From positions 3,323 to 67,322 of IMG/VR virus record IMGVR_UViG_3300027276_000193: a stretch of 64,000 bases of DNA. The stretch is one strand, 5' to 3'. Positions 1 to 43,646 of the stretch are shown piece after piece (position 1 is the first letter of the stretch; every line of letters begins with the position of its first letter). The stretch is from a virus. Taxonomy: Duplodnaviria; Caudoviricetes. A program made the translations under genes and the position numbers. The notes beneath the pieces are model-generated. The model made no database searches and was not told the DNA's origin. It saw only the letters and a list, made by a program, of their open reading frames with translations.

Positions 1-988
1 GCTGGCTGTGCATGTAGCTCTGCCCGCAGAAGGCGCATTTGATTTTTCCCGTCAGGAAGCTGGTGTTCAGTGCCTTGTTGGCCAGCGGGCCAAGCTCCCT
101 GCGCCGCGCCATTTCGGATTGCACATAATCGAAGGTCTCCTTGTCGATGATCGCTTCATGGGTGTTGGGCACAAAGTACTGCGGAAGCTCCCCGCGATTC
201 TTCTTCTTTTTCTTCGAGATGGGATCAGCGGTGAATTCCTTCTGCAGAAGCAGGTTCCCGGTGTAGGTGATGTTGCATAGGACGCTCTTGATGTTCGAAT
301 CCACCCAGCGGCATCCGTCCCGGGTTGTGATGCCCTCGGCAGCAAATTCACGCTCGGTTTCCAGCCGGGATTTTCCGTCGAGGAAATTCTGAAAAATGCG
401 CTTCACGATGACTGCTTCCTCGGGGGTGGGCACCAGCGTATCGCCCTCCCAGTGGTATCCGTACACCCGGAAGTGTCCCGGAGGGATGCCTTGCTCCATG
501 CGCTTCCGCTGGCCCCATTTGACGTTGTCCGAAATGCTCCGGCTTTCCTCCTGGGCAAAAGAGGCCAATAAAGAAAGCATCAGCTCTCCGTCGTCGCTCA
601 GAGAGTTGATGTGCTCTTTTTCAAACTGAACCTCGATGCTCAGCTCCTTCAGGTGACGAACGGTCTCCAGCAGATCCACCGTGTTTCGCGCGAAGCGGGA
701 GATGGATTTGGTCAGGACGATGTCGATGTTGCCCGCCTCGCATTCAGCCAGCATTTTCTGAAACTCCGGCCTGTTGACCTTGGTGCCGGAGATGCCGTCA
801 TCGGCATACACGCCAGCGTACACCCAGCCGGGATGCTTTTGGATGAGCTCGCTGTAATAGCTGACCTGGGCGGAGAGTGAATGGTTCAGGCGTTCTGTTT
901 CCATGGACACCCGCGCATAAGCGGCGACCCGCTTCAGCTTGACCGGCGCTGGCGCAGCCGCATCGATTTTCCTTACAACTTTGGCCAT
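1..988 (-). CDS. Serine recombinase (resolvase/recombinase family), 3' end outside window; probable phage integration module
   Basis: Manual translation from ATG 988 (RBS GGAGG): MAKVVRKIDAAAPAPVKLKRVAAYARVSMETERLNHSLSAQ..., then YADDGISG and LTKSISRFARN motifs; absent from ORF track because it runs off the edge. Confidence 0.9.
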   Translation of the reverse strand, partial: MAKVVRKIDAAAPAPVKLKRVAAYARVSMETERLNHSLSAQVSYYSELIQKHPGWVYAGVYADDGISGTKVNRPEFQKMLAECEAGNIDIVLTKSISRFARNTVDLLETVRHLKELSIEVQFEKEHINSLSDDGELMLSLLASFAQEESRSISDNVKWGQRKRMEQGIPPGHFRVYGYHWEGDTLVPTPEEAVIVKRIFQNFLDGKSRLETEREFAAEGITTRDGCRWVDSNIKSVLCNITYTGNLLLQKEFTADPISKKKKKNRGELPQYFVPNTHEAIIDKETFDYVQSEMARRRELGPLANKALNTSFLTGKIKCAFCGQSYMHSQ

Positions 989-1690: not shown

Positions 1691-1873
1691 ATTGATGTTA
1701 GCAATCGTAAAAACAGAATTACAATGCATTTATAATTGTCTACAGAAACTCCTAAAAAGTATGCGTTTTAAGCTGTTTTTCGGATTGACAATCGCAGACT
1801 GTTAGCTATATAATCTTTAACGTTAACAGGAGCGTACGGCCTGTTAGCAAACGCTGGCCAGCGAATAGTATCT

Positions 1874-2932
1874 TTGGAGGGACCTATGGACACCTTCGGA
1901 CTGTATCTTATGTTTTCTATGCTTGCTACCCAGGTTCTGCCTTCTCCTAACAAACGGGTAGAGTATCCGCTCGGTTTATTACCGTGCCGGATCTTCCAGG
2001 GAGAGACATACCGCAGTTTGTCTCGGATCATCAGAAATATGGTTTTGATGTATCCTGGTGGCGATATTCGGTATGAACAGTCCGGGTTAAGCGATGCGCG
2101 GGATTATATTGAACAGTGCTTTCTGTATGACGAGTTCAGACCCGCTTCACATTTGGGCCTTGCATCCTTTTTCAGGGTCATGGAAACAATCAGTTACCAC
2201 GGACCGCGCAATTTCCTGATTCAAGCTGCTGAAATGATGGATCAAGGGGATGATTTACTTATTCCGGTTTCTGATGTCGTCTCCATGAAAGATTTTCTTT
2301 CTCTCTGTTTTGACTTTTATCTCGTTGATCTGATTAACGGGCATGACGCATTTGCTGCACTGGCTTCAATTCAGGCTGGAGTGAACTCAGATTCAAATAA
2401 TGAAGTTTATGCGCGTTTTGTTGAGGAAACAAAAAACCTCCCAGCTGTAGAGATGAAGCTTGTATTCGACCCAGTGACACGGGCATTTAATCCAATTTAT
2501 CGTGTTACCAGCTTTCAGGCATATATGGCTTTGGAATACATGCAGATGCTTGATCAGAATGTAAAGTTCCGGCGCTGCCAAAATCCTGCCTGTGGTAAGT
2601 TCTTTGTGGCTCAGCGAACAACCGCAAAATACTGTGATTTTCCGTCCCCGCAAAACGAGCTGAAAACCTGTAAAGAACTCTATCCGCAGGTTGCCAGTCG
2701 GGAAAAAACAACCAAGGATGCAGTCCTGAAAAGTATTCGAGGAGCACAGAGCCGTTTGTACAATGTGCGAAGGCGGCATCCGGAACAATCTGAAGCCATA
2801 AATAGATTCCTAGATGAGATTGATGCCCGAAAAGAATCGATGTCGGAAAAAGTCGTTACAGGAGAAATTACTCTTGCTGACTTTAACAAGTGGTTGGAGT
2901 CGCTGACAATTAAGAAAGAGAGGAACACGTGA
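1874..2932 (+). CDS. DUF6076-like protein with C-terminal CGNR-type zinc finger
   Basis: ALEYMQMLDQNVKFRRCQNPACGKFFV...KYCDFPSP...TC motif. Confidence 0.65.
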   Translation: MEGPMDTFGLYLMFSMLATQVLPSPNKRVEYPLGLLPCRIFQGETYRSLSRIIRNMVLMYPGGDIRYEQSGLSDARDYIEQCFLYDEFRPASHLGLASFFRVMETISYHGPRNFLIQAAEMMDQGDDLLIPVSDVVSMKDFLSLCFDFYLVDLINGHDAFAALASIQAGVNSDSNNEVYARFVEETKNLPAVEMKLVFDPVTRAFNPIYRVTSFQAYMALEYMQMLDQNVKFRRCQNPACGKFFVAQRTTAKYCDFPSPQNELKTCKELYPQVASREKTTKDAVLKSIRGAQSRLYNVRRRHPEQSEAINRFLDEIDARKESMSEKVVTGEITLADFNKWLESLTIKKERNT

Positions 2933-3144
2933 TGAATTTTTGGAGTTTTGCCATGGCGCATCCATACATTACAACCTTCGCTTTTGTAGCCACAGTCGGA
3001 TCTGGATTAGGGATTGGCGTTTCCTATGCAAAAAACAAGACGCCGGTTATCGGTACCTTTTCTCCGGCAATCAACTTCAATGTTGGGGCAACTGAAGCAG
3101 GCGGACCGAAGACGGACATATGTACACCGAAGGAGAATATGTAA
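2929..3144 (+). CDS. Small putative membrane protein
   Basis: Overlaps upstream stop (translational coupling); hydrophobic segment YITTFAFVATVGSGLGIGVSY. Confidence 0.5.
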   Translation: MMNFWSFAMAHPYITTFAFVATVGSGLGIGVSYAKNKTPVIGTFSPAINFNVGATEAGGPKTDICTPKENM

Positions 3145-3145
3145 A

Positions 3146-3616
3146 ATGCTTATTGTTGGGATTAATTGGATTCTAAGTTGGGTTCAGATCACAACGGGAA
3201 CCGGAACATATACGTGCCCGATGAAAGAAGAAGCTGATGATTTCTATTTTCGCTTCAAGGGACAATGGCATAGTGTGAGTGAATATGCTCCTGAGCGCTT
3301 AAGGGCAGAAATCCTATCGCACAAGCAGGGAAAGTATGAACAGCGGCAGTCGATCTCTCAGGCTGAATTTGAGGATATCTGCCGTGAAGTCCTTTCGAGT
3401 CATCCAAACATACTTGACTGCTGGTTTGAAGAACCCGGCATCGTGCATGTCGCTTATCCGTCCCATTCCGGTAAAACAAGGAATGGAGCCACCTTGTATT
3501 TCGGTGAAAAAGGATATATCACATACGCCGGGTGGAAACATAACGCCGGAAGTAATGAAGGCATATTTATTGGCGAAGAGATCAGCAGAAAGATTCAGTG
3601 TGCGCTGTATGAATAA
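3146..3616 (+). CDS. Hypothetical protein
   Basis: ORF (track 3014-3616; ATG 3146 after AAGGAG), followed by terminator. Confidence 0.55.
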   Translation: MLIVGINWILSWVQITTGTGTYTCPMKEEADDFYFRFKGQWHSVSEYAPERLRAEILSHKQGKYEQRQSISQAEFEDICREVLSSHPNILDCWFEEPGIVHVAYPSHSGKTRNGATLYFGEKGYITYAGWKHNAGSNEGIFIGEEISRKIQCALYE

Positions 3617-3637
3617 ACCAACATCATAACGGTGTCT

Positions 3638-3668
3638 GGCGGGGCAGGTTCCCCGCCTTTTCTTTTTT
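3638..3668 (+). terminator. Rho-independent terminator
   Basis: GGCGGGG-caggtt-CCCCGCC followed by TTTTCTTTTT. Confidence 0.8.
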
Positions 3669-3765
3669 GCCTGATAAAAGAAACAACCGCCATTCTATTA
3701 CGCTTGACTTTTCACGACTTCTATGGCGTAGTACCACACTGACCTTAAGTCAGGAGGCGGCAAAA

Positions 3766-4035
3766 GTGAACCGTAAAGAAACAACGGAGACGGAGATGCT
3801 CCGAAAGGCCCGGTTGAAGAAGGGTCTTTCACAGCAGCAGGTGGCCACCCTCGCCGGGGTGCACATCCGGCAGTACCAGCGGATCGAGTATGGCGAGCGG
3901 CCCATGGGCAGCATCAACATGCGCTTTGGGCTGGCGGTATGTGCCATTCTGGAGATCAATCCGTTTGATCTGGTCTCCTTTACGGCAGACGGCTGGGAGA
4001 TCATCACACGGGATGACGATCATATCCTGGGTTAA
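3766..4035 (+). CDS. XRE-family HTH transcriptional regulator
   Basis: LRKARLKKGLSQQQVATLAGVHIRQYQRIEYGER; GTG 3766 after CAGGAGG. Confidence 0.85.
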   Translation: MNRKETTETEMLRKARLKKGLSQQQVATLAGVHIRQYQRIEYGERPMGSINMRFGLAVCAILEINPFDLVSFTADGWEIITRDDDHILG

Positions 4036-4137
4036 TTTCCGGATTACGACCGGACAGACGTTGCTGGGCTTTCAAAAGTATGGCTATATACCATGTACCG
4101 CTGACCTGATGAGCCATCAGGCGCGGAATCCATAGGA

Positions 4138-6390
4138 ATGGGAGTGAGCCACACCTTGAAAGACATACGCCCACGGGCTGAGGAGAAGGCCCGGAAAAAA
4201 GCCGATGAGCTGCAGGAGCGGCAGTCCGGTGATACAGTCCGTCCACCCGGAACAGGGTTTGAAACGGAACGCGCCCGCGCCAAGCAGGCCCTGCGCGAAG
4301 AGGTCAATGCCCAGAACGGGCAGAGCGTCCGGAAGATAGCGGCAACGTCAGGCCCGGCGGTCAGTGATGATCGGATCCTGCGCGTCGCCGCTTATTGTCG
4401 TGTTTCCACGGATGACATTGACCAGGTGATCTCCATTGAGCTTCAGAAGAACAATTACCGGGATATGATCAAGGCCAATCCCAAATGGCGGTACGTCGGT
4501 ACCTATGTGGACGACGGCTTCTCCGGCACCAACACGGATCATCGTCCCGCCTTCAAGCTCATGATGAAGGACGCCATGGCCGGAAAGATCGACATGATCA
4601 TCACCAAAAGCGTCAGCCGCTTTGCAAGGAACCTGCTGGACTGTATCGGCTGGGTCAGAAAGCTCAAGGAGCATGATCCGCCGATCCCGGTTTTCTTTGA
4701 GCAGGAGCACCTGAACACCCTGGACTCCACCAGCAACATTATCCTCTTCGTGCTGGCCATGGTCGCTGAGGAAGAAAGCCACATGAAGAGCGAAGCCATG
4801 CTGCTCTCCCTGGAATGGCGCTTCAGCCGTGGGCGGTTCATTACGCCTGCTCTCCTGGGATATGACCGGGTAGAGGTGCCGGACGGTCACGGAAGCCATA
4901 AAAAGGTGCTGCAGATCAACGAGGATGAAGCGCAGACCGTCCGGCTCATGTACTACATGCTCCTAAACGGCAGCAGCATCACGGAGATTGCTTCCACTCT
5001 GACCGAGCTGGAGCGTGAGACAGGCCAGCGGAAGGTTAACGGTAAGCCGAACACCCGCTGGTCGGAGGGCGGAGTCTACAACGTTCTGCGGAATGAACGG
5101 TACTGTGGCGACGTTCTGGCACGTAAGACCTGGACGCCGAATTTCCATGATCATAAGTCCAAGCGGAACAATGGGAAGAAAAACAAGTACTACCAGCCCG
5201 GACATCATGACGCGATTATCACCCGTGCTCAGTGGAATGCCGCCCAGCGTATCCTGAACAGTCATCGCTTCCGGCATACCGGCGGCTACCTTCCCATGGC
5301 GGTGATCGATCACGGCGCGCTGACCGGATTTATTTCCATCAACCGATCCTGGGCGGGCTATGAGGCGGATGAGTATTACCGGATCTGCAGCATCGCCATG
5401 GGCCTTACGGAGGGTGAGCTGGAATCGGATCTGGAGAACGAGCACCTGCCGGATGGCGGAAAAAGGATCGCCGGGCTTACGGACGACAATGGCGTCCAGC
5501 GGATCGCCCGGCAGCTGAGCCAGGTGGAGGAAGCAGTCAAGGCACAGCTGGAGGGCAAGCCTGCCGAGACGCAGGAGGAAAAGAAGCGCATGCCCGTGGA
5601 AGGCTTTCAGGTGGTCAGCGCCGATATGTTCTCCCATGCGTTAGACCCGGTGGTGCGCTTCAGCAAAAACCAGATTGCCTTTAATTCCACCTGCATCAGT
5701 CGGCTGAACCGGATCGCGCAAAGCGGCACCAGCCTTTCCCTGAACCGTACACAGTACGTTGAATTGCTGTTCAACCCGGTGGAGCGCATGCTGGCCGTCC
5801 GCCCCTGCGCGGAGGACAATCCCAACGCCATCTGCTGGGCAACTGAGAACGGGAAAAGCCGCATGGTCAGCGCCAGCGCCTTCTGCCGTATCCTCTTCAG
5901 CATTCTGGACTGGGACAGCGAGTATACCTACCGGGTGCCCTGCATCGTGCGCAGCAGAGATGATGAAACAATTCTTTTCTTTGATCTGGATAATTTCATC
6001 GGCTCCGCGAAGAAAAGCCGGAATGAAAACCTGGAGGAAGAGGTGGCAGCGGCAGAGGAAGCCATCCGGGAGGAGTCCGAGGAGACGAGAGGCATCTTCT
6101 TTTCCGCAGACGACGAGGAAGAGCCGCAGGAGATCGAGGACACGGAGGAAATAGAGCGGAAGCTGCAGGAGCTGGCTGAGATTGAACGGCGCACCTTCGG
6201 CACACCGGTCTTTGAGCATAAGGGCGACGTCCGGCTTCCGTCTATCGACGACGAAGGCGAATGGGACGTCATGGCCATGCCCAAAATCCTCGGCGACGAC
6301 CACCGCATAGACGAGGAGGTGGTGGATGCCCTGCAGGATCAGCTGCTGGAATCCATGGTGATCAATGAAACGGAAGGAGGTACGGAATGA
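4138..6390 (+). CDS. Large serine recombinase with C-terminal beta-domain and acidic tail
   Basis: RVAAYCRVST catalytic motif, YVDDGFSG, ITKSVSRFARN, recombinase domain LRNERYCGD...HHDAIITRAQW. Confidence 0.93.
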   Translation: MGVSHTLKDIRPRAEEKARKKADELQERQSGDTVRPPGTGFETERARAKQALREEVNAQNGQSVRKIAATSGPAVSDDRILRVAAYCRVSTDDIDQVISIELQKNNYRDMIKANPKWRYVGTYVDDGFSGTNTDHRPAFKLMMKDAMAGKIDMIITKSVSRFARNLLDCIGWVRKLKEHDPPIPVFFEQEHLNTLDSTSNIILFVLAMVAEEESHMKSEAMLLSLEWRFSRGRFITPALLGYDRVEVPDGHGSHKKVLQINEDEAQTVRLMYYMLLNGSSITEIASTLTELERETGQRKVNGKPNTRWSEGGVYNVLRNERYCGDVLARKTWTPNFHDHKSKRNNGKKNKYYQPGHHDAIITRAQWNAAQRILNSHRFRHTGGYLPMAVIDHGALTGFISINRSWAGYEADEYYRICSIAMGLTEGELESDLENEHLPDGGKRIAGLTDDNGVQRIARQLSQVEEAVKAQLEGKPAETQEEKKRMPVEGFQVVSADMFSHALDPVVRFSKNQIAFNSTCISRLNRIAQSGTSLSLNRTQYVELLFNPVERMLAVRPCAEDNPNAICWATENGKSRMVSASAFCRILFSILDWDSEYTYRVPCIVRSRDDETILFFDLDNFIGSAKKSRNENLEEEVAAAEEAIREESEETRGIFFSADDEEEPQEIEDTEEIERKLQELAEIERRTFGTPVFEHKGDVRLPSIDDEGEWDVMAMPKILGDDHRIDEEVVDALQDQLLESMVINETEGGTE

Positions 6391-7130
6391 GAAGCGTAAA
6401 GAATCCGGCGCGAAGCAGGCCCCTGTCCCGCAACGTGCGCCGGTTGATGAAGATGGCGCGGGAGTCACCGGCAAACCCGGAGGTGGAAAAGATCGAGCGG
6501 GAGTTCACCGCACGGGATCTGGCCTACTGTGATATGCAGGGAAACATTTTCATGGCGGCGATTGACCGTGGAATCCCTATGGAGGAGTTCGCTCCGGTGT
6601 ACATGAACAGCCAGCTGGCAGGCGTCATTGACTACAGCTTTTCAGTGGCGGGCGGGATGGAAACGGACGATATTTCCGAGTTTCTGCGGATACCCGTTCT
6701 TCTCAAGTCGCCCCAACTGATCGTGGACGTCGTGATGTGGCTGGACAGCATCGTCAGCGGAGTCGACCCTGGGGAAAGTGCCAATATGGCGGTCGTTAAG
6801 GCATGCCTGGATGACGATGGAGCTATGCAGGAAACCAGCCAGGATACCATGCAGAACGGGAACAGCGACAGAAGCTCTGAAACGCTTCCCACGGATGAAA
6901 AGGCGCTGGCAGACCTTTACGAATATGCCTACTGGCTTGGCTATATTTACCGCTGCGAATGCCATATGCACGACGAGTCCAGCCGCATGGTGTATGGCGC
7001 GTTCAACGAAAAGTTCATGCGGGACTTTTACCAGCAGCTTTCCCTGGACGATGATACTGCCCTGATCGATTGCGCTCCGGAGATCTGCCGCAGGCTGGAC
7101 GTGCTCCTGGTCGGCAAGCTGTGGAGGTGA
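6387..7130 (+). CDS. Hypothetical protein (YWLGYIYR motif)
   Basis: 247-aa ORF coupled to recombinase stop (ATGA overlap), RBS GGAGG. Confidence 0.7.
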   Translation: MRSVKNPARSRPLSRNVRRLMKMARESPANPEVEKIEREFTARDLAYCDMQGNIFMAAIDRGIPMEEFAPVYMNSQLAGVIDYSFSVAGGMETDDISEFLRIPVLLKSPQLIVDVVMWLDSIVSGVDPGESANMAVVKACLDDDGAMQETSQDTMQNGNSDRSSETLPTDEKALADLYEYAYWLGYIYRCECHMHDESSRMVYGAFNEKFMRDFYQQLSLDDDTALIDCAPEICRRLDVLLVGKLWR

Positions 7131-7182
7131 TGCAGCATACACCCAAACACCCATATTCCAATGAAAGAATGGAGGAATTGTC

Positions 7183-8022
7183 ATGGATGATCGCAGACCC
7201 GATTACAAGTACGGACAGATGCAACGACCCTATCAACAGCCCCAGCCGATGACCTATGCGCATCCGCAGCCTCTTCCCGGCGCGGTGCCTGCTTCTGTGC
7301 TGGATCAGACGCAGAAGATGACATCCACGGGGTTCAAGCCCCTGAGTAAGGAGGAGCGTGAGGAAGCGGCCCGGATCGCCCTAGAAGCAGGCTTCTCCTT
7401 TGACGGCTACCAGGTGGTGCGAAGGGAATTTTTCTCACACCGCTTCGATCCCACGCTGACCATCAAAGGAAACAGCATCATATTCAACAACGCCTGCATC
7501 TCCCGGCTTGAGCAGGTGATCTACGTGCAGGTGCTGGTGAACCCGACCGCTGAAAAGCTGGTGATCCGCCCCTGCAGCGAAGGAGCGCGGGACGCTATCC
7601 GCTGGTGCGTCACAAGGGATGATAAGCGAAAGAGCCGCCAGATTACCTGCGGCCTGTTTACGGCAAAGCTGTACGACATGATGGGCTGGGAGGCGCTGTA
7701 CCGGTATAAGCTGCAGGGCACCCGCATCAATTATCAGGGAGAGCAGCTGTATGTGTTTGACCTGACCAGCACGGAGGCCTTCCTGCCCCAGGTTAAGGAA
7801 ATGGATGAGAACGGAACAGTGAAGCGGAAGAAGGCTGTGCCGATGTATCCGGCGGACTGGCGGGATTCCTTCGGCATTCCCGTGCAGGAGCACGCCGCCT
7901 CGACACAAATCAACCTTTTGGACGGATACGCCTATATGGAGACAACCGCTGACAACCCAAAGGCAGCGCAGATGCCGATGGAGATCATTGATCAGGAGAC
8001 AGGAGAGGTGACAAAGGTATGA
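7183..8022 (+). CDS. Recombinase-associated protein (paralog of the recombinase C-terminal domain)
   Basis: YQVVRREFFSH...IIFNNACISRL...YVQVLVNPTAEKLVIRPC...DAIRW aligns with recombinase FQVVSADMFSH...IAFNSTCISRL...YVELLFNPVERMLAVRPC...NAICW. Confidence 0.75.
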   Translation: MDDRRPDYKYGQMQRPYQQPQPMTYAHPQPLPGAVPASVLDQTQKMTSTGFKPLSKEEREEAARIALEAGFSFDGYQVVRREFFSHRFDPTLTIKGNSIIFNNACISRLEQVIYVQVLVNPTAEKLVIRPCSEGARDAIRWCVTRDDKRKSRQITCGLFTAKLYDMMGWEALYRYKLQGTRINYQGEQLYVFDLTSTEAFLPQVKEMDENGTVKRKKAVPMYPADWRDSFGIPVQEHAASTQINLLDGYAYMETTADNPKAAQMPMEIIDQETGEVTKV

Positions 8023-8429
8023 GTGAATTTGGAGGATACGCCCCATATGGAACAGAGCCGCTGAAGCTGACCCTATGCCTGGAAGAAGGCAGCATCCTGT
8101 TTAACAAAGCCGTATTGGACACCCTGGATCACCCCAAGCAGGTGCAGATGTTGATCAATGAGGATCGGCAGATGCTGCTGGTGCAGGCCTGTACCGTGGA
8201 CGACCGGGAGGCCATCGTCATCCCGGCTGTCACCAAGTCCGAGTTTGAAATGAGCGGACACAGCCTGCTCAAACGGATACGCAGGCTGACCGGCTGGACA
8301 GACGAACAGCCCAGAACCGTCTTTGGCACCTATATCGCCTCCCACAACGCGATCGTATTTGACCTGATGACCGCGCAGCCTGCCGATCTGCAATTGCCCC
8401 CGGACGGCGGCAGTGGAAGAACTAGCTGA
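8019..8429 (+). CDS. Recombinase-associated small protein, same beta-domain family
   Basis: ILFNKAVLDTL...QVQMLINEDRQMLLVQAC...REAI motif. Confidence 0.7.
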   Translation: MSEFGGYAPYGTEPLKLTLCLEEGSILFNKAVLDTLDHPKQVQMLINEDRQMLLVQACTVDDREAIVIPAVTKSEFEMSGHSLLKRIRRLTGWTDEQPRTVFGTYIASHNAIVFDLMTAQPADLQLPPDGGSGRTS

Positions 8430-8442
8430 GGAGGTGTGACGG

Positions 8443-10770
8443 ATGGCAATGGATAAGGACAGACTGCTTCAGTACTTCCAGCAGCATTACCTTTCCCGGC
8501 AGGAGGTGCTCTTCAAGCTCCCGCTGAATGTTTCCATCGATACCTTCTGGCCGGAGCTGCTGAACCGCAGAAAGGCGGGAGCGATCATTCTTCCGCTGTC
8601 CAACGCAGCCGGGATGCCGTACTGGTATGTGCTGACGGAGAAGATGATCGCAGCCAGCGAACGGCTCTGCGCGGAGGCAATGGAGCAGGAGGAGTGCTTT
8701 GATCCCTACAGAGCGCCGATGACCAGCGCAATGACGGAGGAAATGTTCTTCACCAGCTTTGTGGAGGGAGCACAAATCCCCCTGCAGGAGGCCATGGATT
8801 TCCTTCAGCGCGGGACGGAGCCGGAGAACATCCAGGAGCAGATGATCTGGAACAACCGTCACGCCTGGTCGGGCATGATCGGTTCCCTGTATCGCCCCCT
8901 GGACGAGGGCTTTGTCAAATCCCTTGCTTTCATGCTGACAGAGGAAATGGACAACTGCGCTGAGGATTACCGGCAGACAGACCAGCATCCCATTGCCGCC
9001 ATGAACAGCGAACCGTATGAGGTACCCTCGGCCTACAGCCTACCTGACCGGATGACGGAATACTATGCCTTCCTGCAGGCTGGGAATGTACATCCACTGA
9101 TCAAGGCCGCTGTCGGACAGGCCTATATTCTGGTGGCCCGGCCTTTCCCGGAGGGCAATGAACGATTGTCACGGATGATTTCGTCTGCTGTGCTCCTGCG
9201 AAGCGGCTACGATTTCTTCCGTGACATTTCCATTTCCAGTGTGATCGCAAAGGAGAATTACCGATACTACAAGTGCATGCAGGAAATCCTGCGCTCTGAA
9301 AACGGCGGAGACCTGACGTACTTCATGGAATACTACCTGGATCTGTTGGTCAGGGCGCTGGACAGCAAGAAGGAACGTGAACGTAGGCGTGTGCAGGAGA
9401 GCCTTGCCCGCGAAAGAGAGATGGCCCGCGAGCCGTTACGCGCACCCAGCGCACCTGCGTCCCAGGTGGAGGCAGTCTTCCCGGATGAGGAGGATGAGCC
9501 GCTTCCGGATGACAGCCAACGGACAGCCAAGCCCTGGCCGCTTCAATCGGCGGACAGCTTTATGGAGCAGGTGCGGAAGCTCAAGCATTCACCGAAATCC
9601 GTCCACCGGGAATATCCTGCCAAGGTACAGCGAATGCTGGATCAGGGCCTGATCCGTTTTTCCGTCAGTCAATGGAGCCAGGTACAGGGCATAGCGCGGA
9701 AGGATGCCGATTACGAATGCCGCGTCCTGTATCAGAAGGGACTGACGGATCGCCACACGGATGTGAGCCCCATGGAGTATTCCTTCCGGATCATAGGCGC
9801 ATCCAGTAAGCCTCCGGAGTCTGAAGAAAGTGAGGTGGAAGCCCAACAGAAGGAAGCCAATGAGAGCCCGCCTGCTATGACGGCGGCATTCGAGGAAAAG
9901 CTGAGAGCCTTTGAGCAAAGCAAATCCGACACGAAGCAGCGGACTGCGGTCATTGTTCGGGAGATGATCCGCAAGGGCATCACAACCTTTGCCCGCAGCG
10001 AGTGGGCAGGATACACAGGCCTGAGCCTCGAGCATGCAAAGGACTCCTGCGATGCCATGATTGCCTGCGGCATGATCGTAAACACAACGCCGCATGCTCG
10101 CCCTGCTTTGTATCAGTTCAACATCCATGGAGGCTTGATGCCCGGTCGCCCTACGCAGGCCCTGATCAATCAGCTGAAAGCAATGCGGCAGGATGAAACC
10201 AATCAGCGGGATTACCGGATCGGTACCTTCCTGCTTGAGATGATTGAACAGGGGCAGAACACCTTTACGGCATCAGACTGGGGAACACGATTTGATTTGA
10301 CCAAAACCCAATACGGCAATGACGTCCGGCGGGCTGTTAACCTGGGCCTCGTTACAAAGAAGGTGATATCAGAAGCAGGTAATGGGTCGCACTGCACCTA
10401 CCAGATCTGCAACAGGCCGCAGGAAAGCATCCGCAGCAACGACCTCACCGGGATGCAGAAGGAATACCTCAGCAGGCTCTATGAGGAATTCGCTGAGAAC
10501 GAATTCAGTGTAGAGGATATGGCCCGGTTGATGCAAACCGGCGGTGCGTCCGCCCAGTTCCATCTGAACAATTTTGCAGAGCGTGGAATCCTGAACATCC
10601 ACAGGCGACCGGGAAAAGCGCACCTGTACATCTTCGCGGTGACATCAGAGGATCATCCGGAGTGCTTTGCGCAGATCGCAGGCCCGATAGAGCCCTCTGA
10701 AGTGGAGAAGCAGAAAAGTGAAACGGCGATGGCGGTCGCCAGCACGGCTGACCTTACCGCTACCGCCTGA
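8443..10770 (+). CDS. Fic-domain protein with non-canonical motif and four C-terminal wHTH-like repeats
   Basis: HPLIKAAVGQAYILVARPFPEGNERLSR corresponds to the Fic signature HPFxDGNGRxxR; repeated F-x-x-S-x-W...L-x-x-x-G-L/I units downstream. Confidence 0.8.
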   Translation: MAMDKDRLLQYFQQHYLSRQEVLFKLPLNVSIDTFWPELLNRRKAGAIILPLSNAAGMPYWYVLTEKMIAASERLCAEAMEQEECFDPYRAPMTSAMTEEMFFTSFVEGAQIPLQEAMDFLQRGTEPENIQEQMIWNNRHAWSGMIGSLYRPLDEGFVKSLAFMLTEEMDNCAEDYRQTDQHPIAAMNSEPYEVPSAYSLPDRMTEYYAFLQAGNVHPLIKAAVGQAYILVARPFPEGNERLSRMISSAVLLRSGYDFFRDISISSVIAKENYRYYKCMQEILRSENGGDLTYFMEYYLDLLVRALDSKKERERRRVQESLAREREMAREPLRAPSAPASQVEAVFPDEEDEPLPDDSQRTAKPWPLQSADSFMEQVRKLKHSPKSVHREYPAKVQRMLDQGLIRFSVSQWSQVQGIARKDADYECRVLYQKGLTDRHTDVSPMEYSFRIIGASSKPPESEESEVEAQQKEANESPPAMTAAFEEKLRAFEQSKSDTKQRTAVIVREMIRKGITTFARSEWAGYTGLSLEHAKDSCDAMIACGMIVNTTPHARPALYQFNIHGGLMPGRPTQALINQLKAMRQDETNQRDYRIGTFLLEMIEQGQNTFTASDWGTRFDLTKTQYGNDVRRAVNLGLVTKKVISEAGNGSHCTYQICNRPQESIRSNDLTGMQKEYLSRLYEEFAENEFSVEDMARLMQTGGASAQFHLNNFAERGILNIHRRPGKAHLYIFAVTSEDHPECFAQIAGPIEPSEVEKQKSETAMAVASTADLTATA

Positions 10771-10907
10771 TTGGGCCGTGTTTGGTCGCTGTTGGCCCCA
10801 CGTGCCGCCTTTAGCCGACTGTCCGGAAAACGGTCGGCTGCTTTTTTGTGCGCCACAGCGGGCCGATTCTGTGGCTTTGCGGAAAGACACCCGCAGCAAG
10901 AATTCAC

Positions 10908-10938
10908 TTGCTATTTCAGGCGTTCAGAGTGATATATC
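10908..10938 (+). promoter_or_regulatory. Variant of shared promoter motif (TTGCTATT-N10-AGAGTGATATAT)
   Basis: Same spacing and AGAGTGA core as five TTGACTTT-N10-AGAGTGA copies elsewhere; about 30 bp upstream of the AcrVA2-like gene. Confidence 0.55.
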
Positions 10939-10970
10939 CTCACTGACCTTGGGCCGAAAGGAGGATTACA

Positions 10971-12026
10971 ATGGCCAGGAAGGAATTATCACCCTACGCG
11001 CCTGACGTATGGATCAGGCAGCTTAACAGGACGTATCCCAATCTCTGGACGGATCTGCGGAAGGTGTATGCCGAGCCGGAGAAAATCCTGAACAGCAAGT
11101 CAGGCGGCGTCAGCCTGATCAAGAATGTACCGGACTGGTGCATCATGCCGACGCTCTTTCCTTTTCTGCTGATCACCAACAGATACGGGGAATCCTACTA
11201 CCTCACGCACATGGATGAGATGATGACCATCGGCAGCATGTACGTATGGCGGGCCAGCAAAGGGATATACCGGTTTGCCCCGGAAATCTATGAGGCGCTG
11301 ATCAGTCAGCCCCTCACGGGCAACCTGCCTACGGACTGCCTGTACCATCTCCCGGAATGGGCGGTGTACATTGAAACGCCTGGGCTGTCCTACGAACGTC
11401 ATCCGATGAAGGGCTTCATCGCGCACTTGGATTACAACCTCTTCAGCCGAAACGTGGATCTCCAGTTTGCAATGTTCCTGGAGGGCTGCGATCAGCCGAA
11501 AATGGTCGCGCTGCCCTTTGGCGAAGGATCGTTGCTGGATGCCATGAACCGGGTGGATCAGGTGGACGATCTGTTCATGGGAAAGCGGGACAATCGTTAC
11601 ATTGGCAGTCGGGAGGAATACCGGAAGACCTTTTCCTCCATGCTGCAGCTGCTCCTCTACCTGTGCAGTGAGGAGCCGGATATGCCGCAGATCGAGCATC
11701 CGCAGAAACGGCGGACAATCAGCGGCGGGGTGAGAAGTCCCAAGGAACCTCAGGTGTGGGATGTCGGTGTCCGCGTCTCCAATGCCATCCGGAATTACAA
11801 AAATCATGAGCGCTCTGCTGAGAAGGAAACGGCTTCTGTGCAGGGCGCTCATTCCAGTCCACGGCCTCATGTGCGGGCAGCGCACTGGCATACCTTCTGG
11901 GTTGGCCCCAGGAGCGCAAAGTTTCCAGACAGGAAGCCCATCATCCGGTGGCTTCCACCCATTCCGATTGGGATGGATTGGAGGAGAGAGCTTCCCACCA
12001 ACATCCATATGGTTTTGGAAAGCTGA
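10971..12026 (+). CDS. acrVA2: AcrVA2/FinQ-family protein (anti-CRISPR homolog)
   Basis: Ordered motifs WRASKGIYRF, LPEWAVYIE, LLLYLCSEEPD, VWDVGVRV..AIRNY, RPHVRAAHWHTFWVG, IRWLPP match the AcrVA2 pattern as recalled (WRNTLGIYQL, LPDWCVYVD, LLWLCVAEPD, IYQIGERL, RPHIRRGHWHGYW, VRWQP). Confidence 0.8.
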   Translation: MARKELSPYAPDVWIRQLNRTYPNLWTDLRKVYAEPEKILNSKSGGVSLIKNVPDWCIMPTLFPFLLITNRYGESYYLTHMDEMMTIGSMYVWRASKGIYRFAPEIYEALISQPLTGNLPTDCLYHLPEWAVYIETPGLSYERHPMKGFIAHLDYNLFSRNVDLQFAMFLEGCDQPKMVALPFGEGSLLDAMNRVDQVDDLFMGKRDNRYIGSREEYRKTFSSMLQLLLYLCSEEPDMPQIEHPQKRRTISGGVRSPKEPQVWDVGVRVSNAIRNYKNHERSAEKETASVQGAHSSPRPHVRAAHWHTFWVGPRSAKFPDRKPIIRWLPPIPIGMDWRRELPTNIHMVLES

Positions 12027-12045
12027 TCCCGTAGTTAAAAAAAAA

Positions 12046-12087
12046 CAAGCCCGCAGTCCGGCTCGTAAGAACCAGACTGCGGGCTTG
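12046..12087. terminator. Bidirectional hairpin terminator between convergent acrVA2-like and hsp20 genes
   Basis: CAAGCCCGCAGTC...GACTGCGGGCTTG stem with A-tract on the left. Confidence 0.75.
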
Positions 12088-12097
12088 CAGTGTGTGT

Positions 12098-12550
12098 TTA
12101 TCCTTCAATCAAAATCTGTTTCTTTTCAGGAACCTTCGGGGCTTCCTTCTTAGGAATCATCAGGCTCAGTACACCATTCTCAAACTTGGCTTTTATGTCA
12201 TCTTCAGTAATGCTCTCACCCACATAGAAGCTGCGCTGCATGGTGCCGACGTAACGCTCCTGACGAAGCATCTTACCCTTGTTCTCCTTGTTCAAACTCT
12301 TCTCGGTGGAGATGGTCAGGTAACCGTTGTTCAGATCCAGTTTGATTTCATCCTTGTTGAAGCCAGGCAGATCCACATCCACCTCATAGCCTTCATCTGT
12401 TTCCTTCACATCGGTTTTCATCAGGCGGCTGGCATTCTTGCCGTAGAGCACATGCTCCGGACGCCCAAACCCACGGAAGAAGTCACGGTCAAAGTCATCA
12501 AAGACGTCAAACAGGTTTTCACCAAACACGGTAGGAAGATAAGTACTCAT
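12098..12550 (-). CDS. hsp20: Hsp20/alpha-crystallin small heat-shock protein
   Basis: MKTDVKETDEGYEVDVDLPGFNKDEIKL...RQERYVGTMQRSFYVG...AKFENGVLSLMIPK. Confidence 0.93.
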   Translation of the reverse strand: MSTYLPTVFGENLFDVFDDFDRDFFRGFGRPEHVLYGKNASRLMKTDVKETDEGYEVDVDLPGFNKDEIKLDLNNGYLTISTEKSLNKENKGKMLRQERYVGTMQRSFYVGESITEDDIKAKFENGVLSLMIPKKEAPKVPEKKQILIEG

Positions 12551-12681
12551 AATGCAAACCTCCAATTCATTGGCCTTGTACGCTTGGTTCATTGCCACGC
12601 TTGCAGGGTCGCATTAATTCCATCTTGTTCGGGCTCTCTTTCGATCCCCCTTCCTTGATGGTGTCTATATTATATATCTAA

Positions 12682-40955: not shown

Positions 40956-42200
40956 TTATGTGGGCTGTGTGACATCACTGTAGGAAATAGTGTGCCCGTC
41001 CCGCAGCACCATGATCTCCTGATCCGGGTATTCCAGGTGGAAACGCTCCACTATTACTGTCGCGTATTTCGGATCAAGCTCCATCGTCCGACATATCCGG
41101 TCGGTCTGTTCGCAGGCGATGAGGGTGGAGCCGCTGCCGCCGAACAGATCCATAACCACGGCGTTCGGTGCGCTGCTGTTCTTAATCGGATACGCCAGCA
41201 GCGGAATCGGCTTCATGGTCGGATGGTCAGCGCTCTTCTTGGGCTTGTCGAAATTCCAGATGGTGGACTGCTTCCGGTCGGCGAACCACTTGTGCTTCCC
41301 GTTGGGGAGCCAGCCGTAGAGCACGGGCTCGTGTTGCCACTGGTATGGACTGCGGCCCAGCACCAGGCTGTTCTTCACCCAGATGCATACCCCGGAAATA
41401 TGAAAGCCGGACTCTTTGAAAGCCCGGCGAAAGTTCAGTCCTTCGGTATCCGCATGGAAGATGTAGGCGCTGCCGCCCTCGGCCATATGCGCCGCCATGT
41501 TCTGGAAAGCGGCCAGCAGGAAGGCGAAGAACTGCTCGTCTGCCATGCTGTCGTTCTGGATCTTCTTTCCGTCAGCGGACTCATACGCCACGTTATAGGG
41601 TGGATCGGTCACGACCAGGTTGGCCCTGATGCCGTCCATGAGCGCGTCCACTGCATCCGGCGATGTGCTGTCCCCGCACATCATGCGGTGCCTGCCCAGC
41701 GTCCAGATGTCACCGGGCTGTACATATACGTTGACTGTTTCCGGATCAATCTCACAGTCATCGTCATGCACATCCTTGTCATGCACCTTGGAGAAAAGAT
41801 CATCCACCTCGGCAGCGTCAAAGCCTGTCGCGCCGAGATCATATCCGGCGTTCTGCAGATCCTGCAGCAGGTCAGCCAGGGCCGTGGGCTCCCAGTCGCC
41901 AGTGGCTTTGTTGAGCGCGATGTTCAGCGCCTTTTCATCCGAAGGGTTCTCGATGTGCACCACAACGCAGTCCACCTCGGTCGCGCCTTCAGCCTTCAGC
42001 ACCTTGAAACGCTGGTGACCGCCTACGATGTTGCCCGTCACCTCATTCCAGACGATGGGATCGACATACCCGAAGTCGTGCAGGCTGCGCTTGATCTTCT
42101 CATACGCGGGATCGCCCGGCTTCAGGTCTTTCCTGGGGTTGTATTTCGCAGGCTTCAGCCGGTCAATGGGCATGGTCTGCATGTTCAGATTCGTATTCAC
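40956..42200 (-). CDS. ParB-like domain + N6/N4 DNA methyltransferase
   Basis: GTG 42200 after AGGAGG; LKPAKYNPR ParB motif, TDPPYN, HPTMKP, DLFGGSGST. Confidence 0.9.
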   Translation of the reverse strand: MNTNLNMQTMPIDRLKPAKYNPRKDLKPGDPAYEKIKRSLHDFGYVDPIVWNEVTGNIVGGHQRFKVLKAEGATEVDCVVVHIENPSDEKALNIALNKATGDWEPTALADLLQDLQNAGYDLGATGFDAAEVDDLFSKVHDKDVHDDDCEIDPETVNVYVQPGDIWTLGRHRMMCGDSTSPDAVDALMDGIRANLVVTDPPYNVAYESADGKKIQNDSMADEQFFAFLLAAFQNMAAHMAEGGSAYIFHADTEGLNFRRAFKESGFHISGVCIWVKNSLVLGRSPYQWQHEPVLYGWLPNGKHKWFADRKQSTIWNFDKPKKSADHPTMKPIPLLAYPIKNSSAPNAVVMDLFGGSGSTLIACEQTDRICRTMELDPKYATVIVERFHLEYPDQEIMVLRDGHTISYSDVTQPT

Positions 42201-42257
42201 GGTTCCTCCTTCTGCCGTCCTTCGGGGCGGCTTTTTTGATGTCCGGGCGGGCCGATA

Positions 42258-42347
42258 CCCCCACCCCCGAATTTGTCGGAAATTCACGCGTGAGGGGGGC
42301 GCGGTCTCCGCCAGGCACACCCAGGGATCTGACCGCCCCCTCCCGGG
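42258..42347 (-). other. Candidate cos/packaging initiation site
   Basis: Minus strand GGGAGGGGGCGGTCAGATCCCT...GAGACCGCGCCCCCCTCACGCGTGAATTT resembles, from memory, the G-rich element usually found after the HNH gene in HK97-type Firmicutes phages; directly upstream of the MTase-terS-terL operon. Confidence 0.5.
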
Positions 42348-42390
42348 CACACCTCGGCCCGGCGGCTGGGCACACCGACCTGCCCGGCGA

Positions 42391-42499
42391 CTTCGCCAGA
42401 GCAAAGTGGAGAAGTGTGCCGCCCGCCGGACTTCTTCACGGCAAAGCGAAGAAGCGCCGCCCGCCCGGACTTCACCAGAGCAAAGTCGGAAAGTGTGCC
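42391..42499 (+). repeat. Three imperfect direct repeats, ~40-bp period
   Basis: CTTCGCCAGAGCAAAGTGGAGAAGTGTGCC (42391), CTTCTTCACGGCAAAGCGAAGAAGCGCCGC (42431), CTTCACCAGAGCAAAGTCGGAAAGTGTGCC (42470). Confidence 0.7.
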
Positions 42500-42641
42500 C
42501 GGCGGCGGTTCCGGGCGGCGGGTCGGTGTGCCCGCCCGGGCGGCGAAAAACCGCCCGCCCGGCGAAAAAAAACCGGGTTTTTTTCCGGCCCCTACGCGCA
42601 TGTATAAGGAAGCGCGGCCTCCTTTTTCGCAAAAAAAACCG

Positions 42642-42672
42642 TTGACTTTTCGGCCCGGCAGAGTGATGGATG
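42642..42672 (+). promoter_or_regulatory. Shared promoter motif upstream of amidoligase
   Basis: TTGACTTT-tcggcccggc-AGAGTGATGGATG. Confidence 0.7.
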
Positions 42673-42752
42673 TACGCGCCGGGCGGGAAACCGCCCAGAA
42701 GGCACAGCCGGGCCGGGCGGGAGAAGCCGCCGCCGGGAGAAAGGAGACCCCC

Positions 42753-43646
42753 ATGAAAACCCAGACCTTCGGCATCGAGATCGAAATGAACCACATCACC
42801 CGCCAGCTGGCCGCGCAGGTGGTCGCGGAAACCCTCGGCGAAGGAGCGACCTTCCGGCACACGGGCGGTTCCTACGACGCTTGGGAGGTCACCGCGCTGG
42901 ACGGGCGGCGGTGGAAGCTGGTCAGCGACGCGAGCATCGCCGGGCCGCGCGACCAAGGCACAGAGTTCGTCAGCCCGATTTGCCGCTGGGAAGACATCGA
43001 AACGGTGCAGGCCTGCGTCCGGGCCCTCCGGGCGGCTGGGGCACACGCCGACCCCTCCTGCGGCATCCACGTACACGTCGGCCTTGGGGAGCACACCCCC
43101 AAAACCCTGCGGAACTTGGTCAACTTGGTCAACGCCAAGGAAGACCTCCTGACCCAAGCCCTCCAAATCAGCCCGGAGCGCCGGAGCCGCTGGTGCCAGC
43201 CCGTCGACCCACACTTCCTCGCGACCCTGAACCGCCGGAAGCCCGCGACCTCCGAGGATTTCGCCCGGATTTGGTACGACGACATGTGCTGGGAGTACCA
43301 CGCACACCAGCACTACGACCCCTCCCGGTACCACCTGCTGAACCTGCACAGCGTTTTCCAGAAGGGCACCATCGAGTTCCGGGCCTTCAACAGCACACTT
43401 CACGCCGGAGAGGTCAAGGCCTACATCCAGCTTTGCCTCGCGATTTCCCACCAAGCCCTGACGGTGGCTTCCGCAAGCCCGGCCCGCCCGGTCACCGACA
43501 ACCCGGCGTACACCTTCCGGTGCTGGCTCCTCCGGCTGGGCATGAACGGCGAGGAGTTTAAGACCGCCCGCACACACCTCCTGAAGCACATGCCCGGCAA
43601 CGCGGCTTGGAGGAACGGTGCTGAGACCACCCGCCGGGCCTCCTGA
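42753..43646 (+). CDS. Putative amidoligase (Amidoligase_2, COOH-NH2 ligase type)
   Basis: TFGIEIEM, WKLVSDASI, TEFVSP, SCGIHVHV, RYHLLNL, TIEFRAFN; ATG 42753 after AAGGAG. Confidence 0.9.
   Translation: MKTQTFGIEIEMNHITRQLAAQVVAETLGEGATFRHTGGSYDAWEVTALDGRRWKLVSDASIAGPRDQGTEFVSPICRWEDIETVQACVRALRAAGAHADPSCGIHVHVGLGEHTPKTLRNLVNLVNAKEDLLTQALQISPERRSRWCQPVDPHFLATLNRRKPATSEDFARIWYDDMCWEYHAHQHYDPSRYHLLNLHSVFQKGTIEFRAFNSTLHAGEVKAYIQLCLAISHQALTVASASPARPVTDNPAYTFRCWLLRLGMNGEEFKTARTHLLKHMPGNAAWRNGAETTRRAS

Follow-up and report, generated by a model that had tools for sequence, protein, structure and literature searches.

An AcrVA2/FinQ-family gene carried as a self-contained cassette in a Clostridia prophage

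A 64,000-nucleotide stretch of viral DNA (the window) carries an open reading frame that resembles the Moraxella anti-CRISPR gene acrVA2, and the question that it raises is whether such a gene, in a prophage of gut Clostridia, would act on Cas12a or silence something else. What AcrVA2 reads is an N-terminal, LSKT-containing peptide of Cas12a that is still being made, and loss of the cas12a mRNA follows (10.1101/2022.11.29.518452). We examined the setting of the gene, the family to which its protein belongs, its recurrence in related genomes and the candidate targets.

The gene in its prophage

The window belongs to a 67.3-kb IMG/VR provirus that has a complete set of siphovirus-type genes. Minus-strand genes for a primase/helicase, an SNF2-type helicase, a ParB-methyltransferase, the large terminase and the portal were found from about 58.8 kb onwards, and the same run continued down to 12.9 kb with the major capsid, tape measure, tail proteins, tail fibre, holin and endolysin. 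The acr-like gene was located just past the lysis cassette, adjoining a serine recombinase region. With lysis genes on one side and recombinases on the other, it occupies the classical lysis-to-integrase accessory region. The best explanation is that the phage is temperate and siphovirus-like and that its host is a Christensenellales bacterium. The prophage setting and the Clostridia host proposed in the first-pass annotation, which was made from the letters alone, agreed with this gene set and with the Clostridia metagenome-assembled genomes (MAGs) that carry the gene. The features at and around it were as follows.

10812-10840, plus strand: terminator-like hairpin of the upstream operon, with an 11-pair stem containing 6 GC pairs, followed by the T-run CTTTTTTGTG
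10908-10938, plus strand: promoter-like block, with TTGCTA (10908-10913, -35-like), a spacer of about 17 nt and TGATATAT (10930-10937)
10958-10964, plus strand: ribosome-binding site AAGGAGG, 6 nt 5' of the ATG and kept in homologous loci
10971-12026, plus strand: acr-like gene of the AcrVA2/FinQ family, 351 aa, ATG start
11247-11249, plus strand: codon of W93, equivalent to AcrVA2 W79 and invariant in the family
11862-11891, plus strand: RPHVRAAHWH motif, in which H300, R302 and H305 are equivalent to AcrVA2 H286, R288 and H291
12045-12088, no strand assigned: GC-rich hairpin in the gap between the convergent acr-like and hsp20 genes, with a 20-bp stem containing 12 GC pairs
12098-12598, minus strand: hsp20, convergent with the acr-like gene and left of the lysis cassette

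The operon upstream of the acr-like gene encodes an HTH regulator, a large serine recombinase (4138-6390), three small ORFs and a 775-aa Fic-domain protein. Since this operon ends in its own plus-strand terminator at 10812-10840, the acr-like gene is transcriptionally insulated from it. The motif TTGCTA-N(16-17)-TGATATAT was kept in five loci (the window, L002, L004, L006 and L009), and the upstream flanks were unrelated in four of the five loci that share the block; in L005 the block was degenerate. A strict sigma-70 consensus scan called no promoter at 10908-10938. The block is therefore best described as a conserved, consensus-like sequence that is plausible as a putative promoter, and the first-pass claim that the gene has its own promoter held for the conservation of the block in five loci and failed in the consensus scan. 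The terminator assigned to the gene in the same annotation turned out not to be private: the T-run of the 12045-12088 hairpin is on the minus strand, so the hairpin is bidirectional and common to the acr-like gene and hsp20.

Contigs from four RNA-library runs, belonging to four studies, contained the acr-like gene and covered the tail and lysis genes too; DNA carry-over into such libraries is possible, and these contigs are uninformative on lysogen expression, strand and transcript ends. Their summed depth peaked over hsp20 and the endolysin end, figures that cannot rank expression. For hsp20 itself, a promoter close to the consensus, TTGACT-17-TATAAT, lies at 12697-12669, and the terminator is strong.

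Several other genes of the record deserve mention. At its left end, the minus strand bears two further large serine recombinase genes in an overlapping tandem arrangement (G000:C1:1-4310; L034, window 2-988); together with the one at 4138-6390, the provirus record thus holds three. The Fic protein (window 8443-10770, 775 aa) has the signature RPFPEGNERLSR and four winged-helix-like repeats after the Fic domain. Its catalytic His is replaced by Arg, so that it is probably non-catalytic. Beside the terminase, an 877-aa ORF (window 40956-43589) joins a ParB-like N-terminal nuclease/partition domain to a DNA methyltransferase and matches PHROG 498 with an E value of 6e-172.

No acr-aca operon was recognised, as the cassette contains no small HTH gene and its neighbours are the Fic/winged-helix-repeat gene behind the terminator and the convergent hsp20. 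Neither an acrVA1-like neighbour nor an Aca regulator was found by the acr-like gene, and the window held no paralogue of it beyond the single copy.

Family membership, fold and functional residues

A phmmer search of all PDB sequences gave AcrVA2 (7CI1/7CI2) as the sole match of the query protein, with an E value of 2e-13 over query residues 92-331. A family profile made from 76 diverse homologues matched AcrVA2 alone (E 2.9e-41) and spanned chain residues 10-318 of 323, indicating that the homology is full-length and extends beyond the C-terminal part. The AlphaFold2 model built on that alignment reached a pLDDT of 91 and a pTM of 0.88. When the PDB was searched with this model by Foldseek, only 7CI2/7CI1 were recovered (E 1.6e-15, probability 1.0, TM 0.58-0.68), and the next match after AcrVA2, at an E value of 0.07, was noise.

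The query was also matched by PHROG 6160, a family of unknown function (E 3.2e-48, profile positions 36-318 of 322), and precomputed matches to Pfam PF26125 were present on homologues up to 99% identical to it. Pfam and NCBIfam scans of the query itself returned no match; the copy of Pfam that was scanned did not contain PF26125, and the empty Pfam scan is therefore not evidence against membership. By tblastn, 741 plasmid records were matched, many of them annotated as finQ on IncI/F plasmids of E. coli, and annotated finQ aligned with query residues 78-345 at an E value of 1e-20. The same search against phages yielded 59 records, including AcrVA2 orthologues of Moraxella catarrhalis phages (E 6.7e-127 to 7CI1) and a gene of Shewanella phage Y11 that has already been published as 'AcrVA2' (PMC10846135). 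Membership in the AcrVA2/FinQ superfamily (PHROG 6160; Pfam PF26125) is secure. The first-pass annotation had made this assignment from six ordered motifs and had named profile and structure searches against AcrVA2 and FinQ as the check; profile search, fold search and finQ matches all bore it out, with significant matches to both proteins.

The C-terminal motifs RPHxRxxHWH-x2-W and RW-x-P, on which that assignment had leaned, are indeed present, as RPHVRAAHWHTFW (residues 298-310, nt 11862-11900) and IRWLPP. In AcrVA2, H286, R288 and H291 are needed for cas12a mRNA loss and dispensable for Cas12a binding; W79 and D89 make a moderate contribution, the D89A change causing a moderate loss of function (10.1101/2022.11.29.518452). 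Both pairwise and profile alignments placed W93, H300, R302 and H305 of the query opposite W79, H286, R288 and H291, and these four residues were invariant in 76 of the 76 aligned family members. Within the Clostridia clade to which the query belongs, H300, R302 and H305 were conserved at 99-100%, and strongly conserved blocks covered residues 91-135, 226-240 and 301-315. These blocks, together with the three C-terminal residues, indicate purifying selection on an AcrVA2-like functional core.

The position of D89 is occupied by Ala103 in the query, so that the conserved Asp is absent. Ala was found at this position in 82% of the clade, whereas Asp was found in 86% of the wider family. With Ala103 in place of the conserved Asp, the activity of the query could be altered; D89 is a residue of moderate effect and does not define the family. 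AcrVA2 E98, D129 and D195 touch the Cas12a peptide in the crystal structure 7CI2. By sequence alignment only, E98 and D129 correspond to P114 and E142 of the query, and D195 falls in a hypervariable, poorly aligned loop (about residues 196-210), where the confidence of the AlphaFold2 model drops as well. Homology, fold, conserved functional residues and genomic setting are thus demonstrated for this gene.

Three groups of known proteins come closest. AcrVA2, an anti-CRISPR of Moraxella bovoculi prophages, shares with the query the same fold over its full length, a similar size (322 aa, and 351 aa in the query), the essential W and HxRxxH residues and the position of a prophage accessory gene. 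It is about 19-29% identical to the query and belongs to a separate clade; the query differs further in the Ala at the D89 position, the peptide-contact residues that are not conserved, and the missing acrVA1-like neighbour and Aca regulator. FinQ, the fertility inhibitor of IncI/F-like plasmids of E. coli, is like the query a single accessory gene on a mobile element, and has a very similar C-terminal tail, HIRRxHWH...WLPPxP. It shows about 25% identity to the query on a long separate branch, and is found on plasmids of Enterobacteria beside tra/trb genes, whereas the query is carried by a Clostridia prophage. The phage members of PHROG 6160/PF26125 (AcrVA2-like), from Lactobacillus JCL1032, Leptospira LE1, Pasteurella, Erwinia jumbo phages and Shewanella Y11, are, like the query, uncharacterised accessory genes, mostly annotated as hypothetical, and the closest of them is less than 30% identical to it.

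Distribution, recurrence and erosion of the cassette

Searched with HMMER, 1.84 billion cluster representatives yielded 3838 clusters of the family at E <= 1e-3, of which 2324 also passed E <= 1e-10. A published tree already covers about 1,800 orthologues (10.1101/2022.11.29.518452), and the gene described here is one more member of a large family that is already in Pfam, in PHROGs and in the original survey. A quick maximum-likelihood tree (IQ-TREE) placed the query in a clade of Clostridia only, with an SH-aLRT value of 99; FinQ and the AcrVA2 orthologue each came out on a very long branch apart from it, that of the AcrVA2 orthologue having a length of 3.35. Members of the Clostridia clade were 43-99% identical, formed at least 120 clusters at 90% identity and have so far come only from metagenomes of gut, rumen and digesters; a single 90% cluster contained 473 member sequences.

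The carriers were MAGs of Clostridia, Oscillospiraceae and Christensenellales from ruminant guts and one human (Hadza) gut sample, and the sequencing runs that contained the stretch were ruminant gut, stomach and anaerobic-digester metagenomes. The ORF of the query was intact and 99-100% identical across several MAGs, and in five of the five hosts checked the gene was present in a single copy per genome.

DNA similarity between the window and L004, L005, L006, L007 and L009 began at 10906-10953 and ended at about 11993-12020. The surroundings varied from locus to locus. A Christensenellales MAG has, in a contig of 1.6 Mb, a prophage 94-100% identical to that of the window (L002). In L004 the recombinase-Fic block was likewise upstream, and the 10 kb downstream contained no phage structural genes; in L005 the block was inverted relative to the acr-like gene, and partly so in L006, where a DUF6076 gene lay directly downstream; in L007 a host LytTR two-component system lay directly upstream. 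The acr-like cassette was thereby found in at least four different flanks. It has terminators on both sides and a putative promoter at its edge, it lies outside the core modules and its context is variable, the characters by which a moron is recognised. The stand-alone architecture claimed in the first-pass annotation was accordingly upheld by the flanking terminators and by the recurrence in different flanks; the anti-defence role that the annotation attached to it is a candidate role.

In most full-length loci the acr-like gene was accompanied by a block made up of the HTH gene, the serine recombinase gene, ORFs of 247, 279 and 136 aa and the Fic gene, possibly a separate element that carries its own recombinase and has come to lie inside the prophage. 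Its positions were the following.

3667-10770 of the window: HTH-recombinase-Fic block
L004:1669-9795: HTH-recombinase-Fic block
L005:3044-9862: HTH-recombinase-Fic block
L006:6525-8856: HTH-recombinase-Fic block

Two differences in gene content between related prophages were also seen. The L002 prophage, otherwise 94-96% identical, lacks the 2-kb segment at window positions 1691-3702, in which a DUF6076 gene, an ORF of 200 aa and the beginning of the HTH gene region lie. In the related prophage of L005, a 9-kb island (L005:11063-18045) separates the acr-like gene from the holin, with genes for SAP-domain, ion-channel, WYL-domain, double-zinc-ribbon and metallo-beta-lactamase-fold proteins; it is possibly a defence or accessory island.

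Not all copies were complete. Remnants of the 3' part, truncated at the 5' side, were present in seven of the 27 related genome loci (L008, L012, L013, L015, L021, L026 and L027). They corresponded to window positions 11390-12090 and were cut at residues 138, 211, 212, 254, 284, 293 and 299. One further locus of the 27, L009, carried a frameshifted copy. The remnants in L013, L015, L021 and L027 bordered ordinary host genes, and that of L015 was a 350-bp scar with host-like ABC transporter operons on both sides. The seven remnants and the frameshift indicate that the acr-like gene is often dispensable, and the remnants that border host genes indicate that it tends to sit at the extreme edge of the element and is frequently eroded there, in the manner of other accessory genes at the ends of prophages. 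Swapping of N-terminal domains was considered as the origin of the 3' fragments and was rejected, as the frames upstream of the break were closed or unrelated and abutted host genes.

Likely activity and candidate targets

Because the whole fold and the C-terminal core are kept in the query, polypeptide-specific co-translational silencing is most likely its activity. In an editorial on Marino et al. 2026, the C-terminal part of AcrVA2 is described as binding ribosomes/polysomes and the cutting as done by a cellular enzyme (PMC13728456, PMC13131331). By analogy, the query protein would bind a short peptide of one specific protein as it emerges from the ribosome, its conserved C-terminal HxRxxH module would associate it with the ribosome, and a host RNase would then destroy the mRNA of the bound nascent protein. 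The outcome would be that a single gene is silenced throughout the residence of the prophage. The silencing mechanism, the expression in the lysogen and the class of the target are what we infer from this comparison.

Whether Cas12a could be that target was addressed in the carrier genomes and their relatives. Some Clostridia of the gut and rumen, Lachnospiraceae among them, are known to have Cas12a. The profile TIGR04330 (Cas12a) gave no match over the cut-off in the provirus record, 10 carrier genomes, 301 order-level genomes and 399 class-level genomes, in a search in which 0 of 14 controls were matched. The ten carrier genomes, which carry the acr-like gene or a close relative, are MAGs whose completeness is not known. 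With a search that lacked a positive control and hosts that are MAGs, absence of Cas12a is not proven. Cas1 was not found in G001, the near-identical Christensenellales lysogen, or in G003 and G004; the Cas1 control worked, with matches in seven of 14 genomes. Most members of the AcrVA2 family are reported to occur in genomes without Cas12a (10.1101/2022.11.29.518452). The separate clade, the lack of a Cas12a match, weak as that is, the lack of Cas1 in G001 and the published survey together suggest that the target is probably not Cas12a.

Four readings of the gene were weighed against each other. We consider it probable that the gene is a Clostridia-clade member of the AcrVA2/FinQ family, carried as a self-contained prophage cassette, that silences one gene, and that the target of this silencing is not Cas12a. 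A working type V-A anti-CRISPR, which would read the LSKT peptide of Cas12a, clear the cas12a mRNA and protect the phage, would account for the full-length homology, the AcrVA2 fold and the retention of all three essential C-terminal residues; it would also fit the occurrence of Cas12a in some gut and rumen Clostridia, and the negative Cas12a searches, run without a positive control, weigh little against it. It is nevertheless highly improbable, since orthology is lacking (the query belongs to a separate, well-supported clade and AcrVA2 sits on a very long branch), identity to AcrVA2 in the structural alignment is 19%, the residues that contact the peptide in 7CI2 are mostly not conserved, and most family members occur without Cas12a (10.1101/2022.11.29.518452). 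The likely host, moreover, differs from that of AcrVA2 in that neither Cas12a, in 10 carrier genomes searched without a positive control, nor Cas1, in G001 with a working control, was found. Cas12a as the target, one of the two proposals of the first-pass annotation, was accordingly not sustained. We also gave a very slim chance to a decaying or functionally shifted passenger that has kept the fold and either lost silencing or taken on an activity unrelated to co-translational mRNA decay. The change of the family-conserved Asp (AcrVA2 D89) to Ala in the clade, the 3' remnants that are all that is left in seven of 27 loci and the single frameshift would agree with such a passenger. The intact ORF, its 99-100% identity in several MAGs, the 473-member cluster and the clade conservation in blocks 91-135, 226-240 and 301-315, with H300, R302 and H305 at 99-100%, argue against it.

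A tentative possibility, given more weight than these two, is a FinQ-like weapon between mobile elements. Expressed from the resident prophage or the nested recombinase element, it would reduce a key transcript of a rival phage, ICE or plasmid, and not that of a host defence gene, with superinfection or transfer exclusion as the effect. Biogenesis inhibitors have been argued to suit a resident element facing an incoming one (10.1101/2022.11.29.518452), as protein made beforehand is beyond their reach, and biogenesis inhibition would fit an element in that situation here. The direct similarity to annotated FinQ (E 1e-20, query residues 78-345), the query tail WLPPIPI...LP, which is closer to WLPPVPVN...LP of FinQ than to the tail of AcrVA2, and the recombinase-rich region, in which several elements seem to be nested, point in the same direction. 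FinQ and AcrVA2 are, on the other hand, equally distant from the query in the tree. The target of FinQ is F transfer-gene mRNA, to which nothing near the query corresponds, and no candidate target element was found. A FinQ-like role is a sub-case of the favoured reading, silencing of one gene other than cas12a, and does not contradict it.

Under that favoured reading, the target would more likely be a protein of host defence or one of a rival mobile element than Cas12a, and these two candidates stand on an equal footing. A nascent host or mobile-element protein other than Cas12a was the second proposal of the first-pass annotation; it is reasonable, and adds nothing beyond what has already been proposed for the whole family (10.1101/2022.11.29.518452). 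A more specific and rather doubtful version is that the Clostridia clade, with Ala at the conserved Asp, reads the nascent peptide of neither Cas12a nor a plasmid transfer protein; the candidates would then be proteins of defence or of rival elements that are particular to gut/rumen Firmicutes. The acr-like protein may also work together with the probably non-catalytic Fic/winged-helix-repeat protein, its companion in most full-length loci.

To our knowledge, AcrVA2 is so far the sole bacterial protein that reads a nascent polypeptide and has the corresponding mRNA destroyed. If the more specific version just given is true, the gene described here would represent a second, independent case of polypeptide-specific co-translational silencing, differing in specificity from the first and operating in a Gram-positive host. 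The abundant and well-conserved Clostridia clade, whose hosts gave no Cas12a match, is a reasonable place to seek a second target and to test the mechanism in Gram-positive bacteria.
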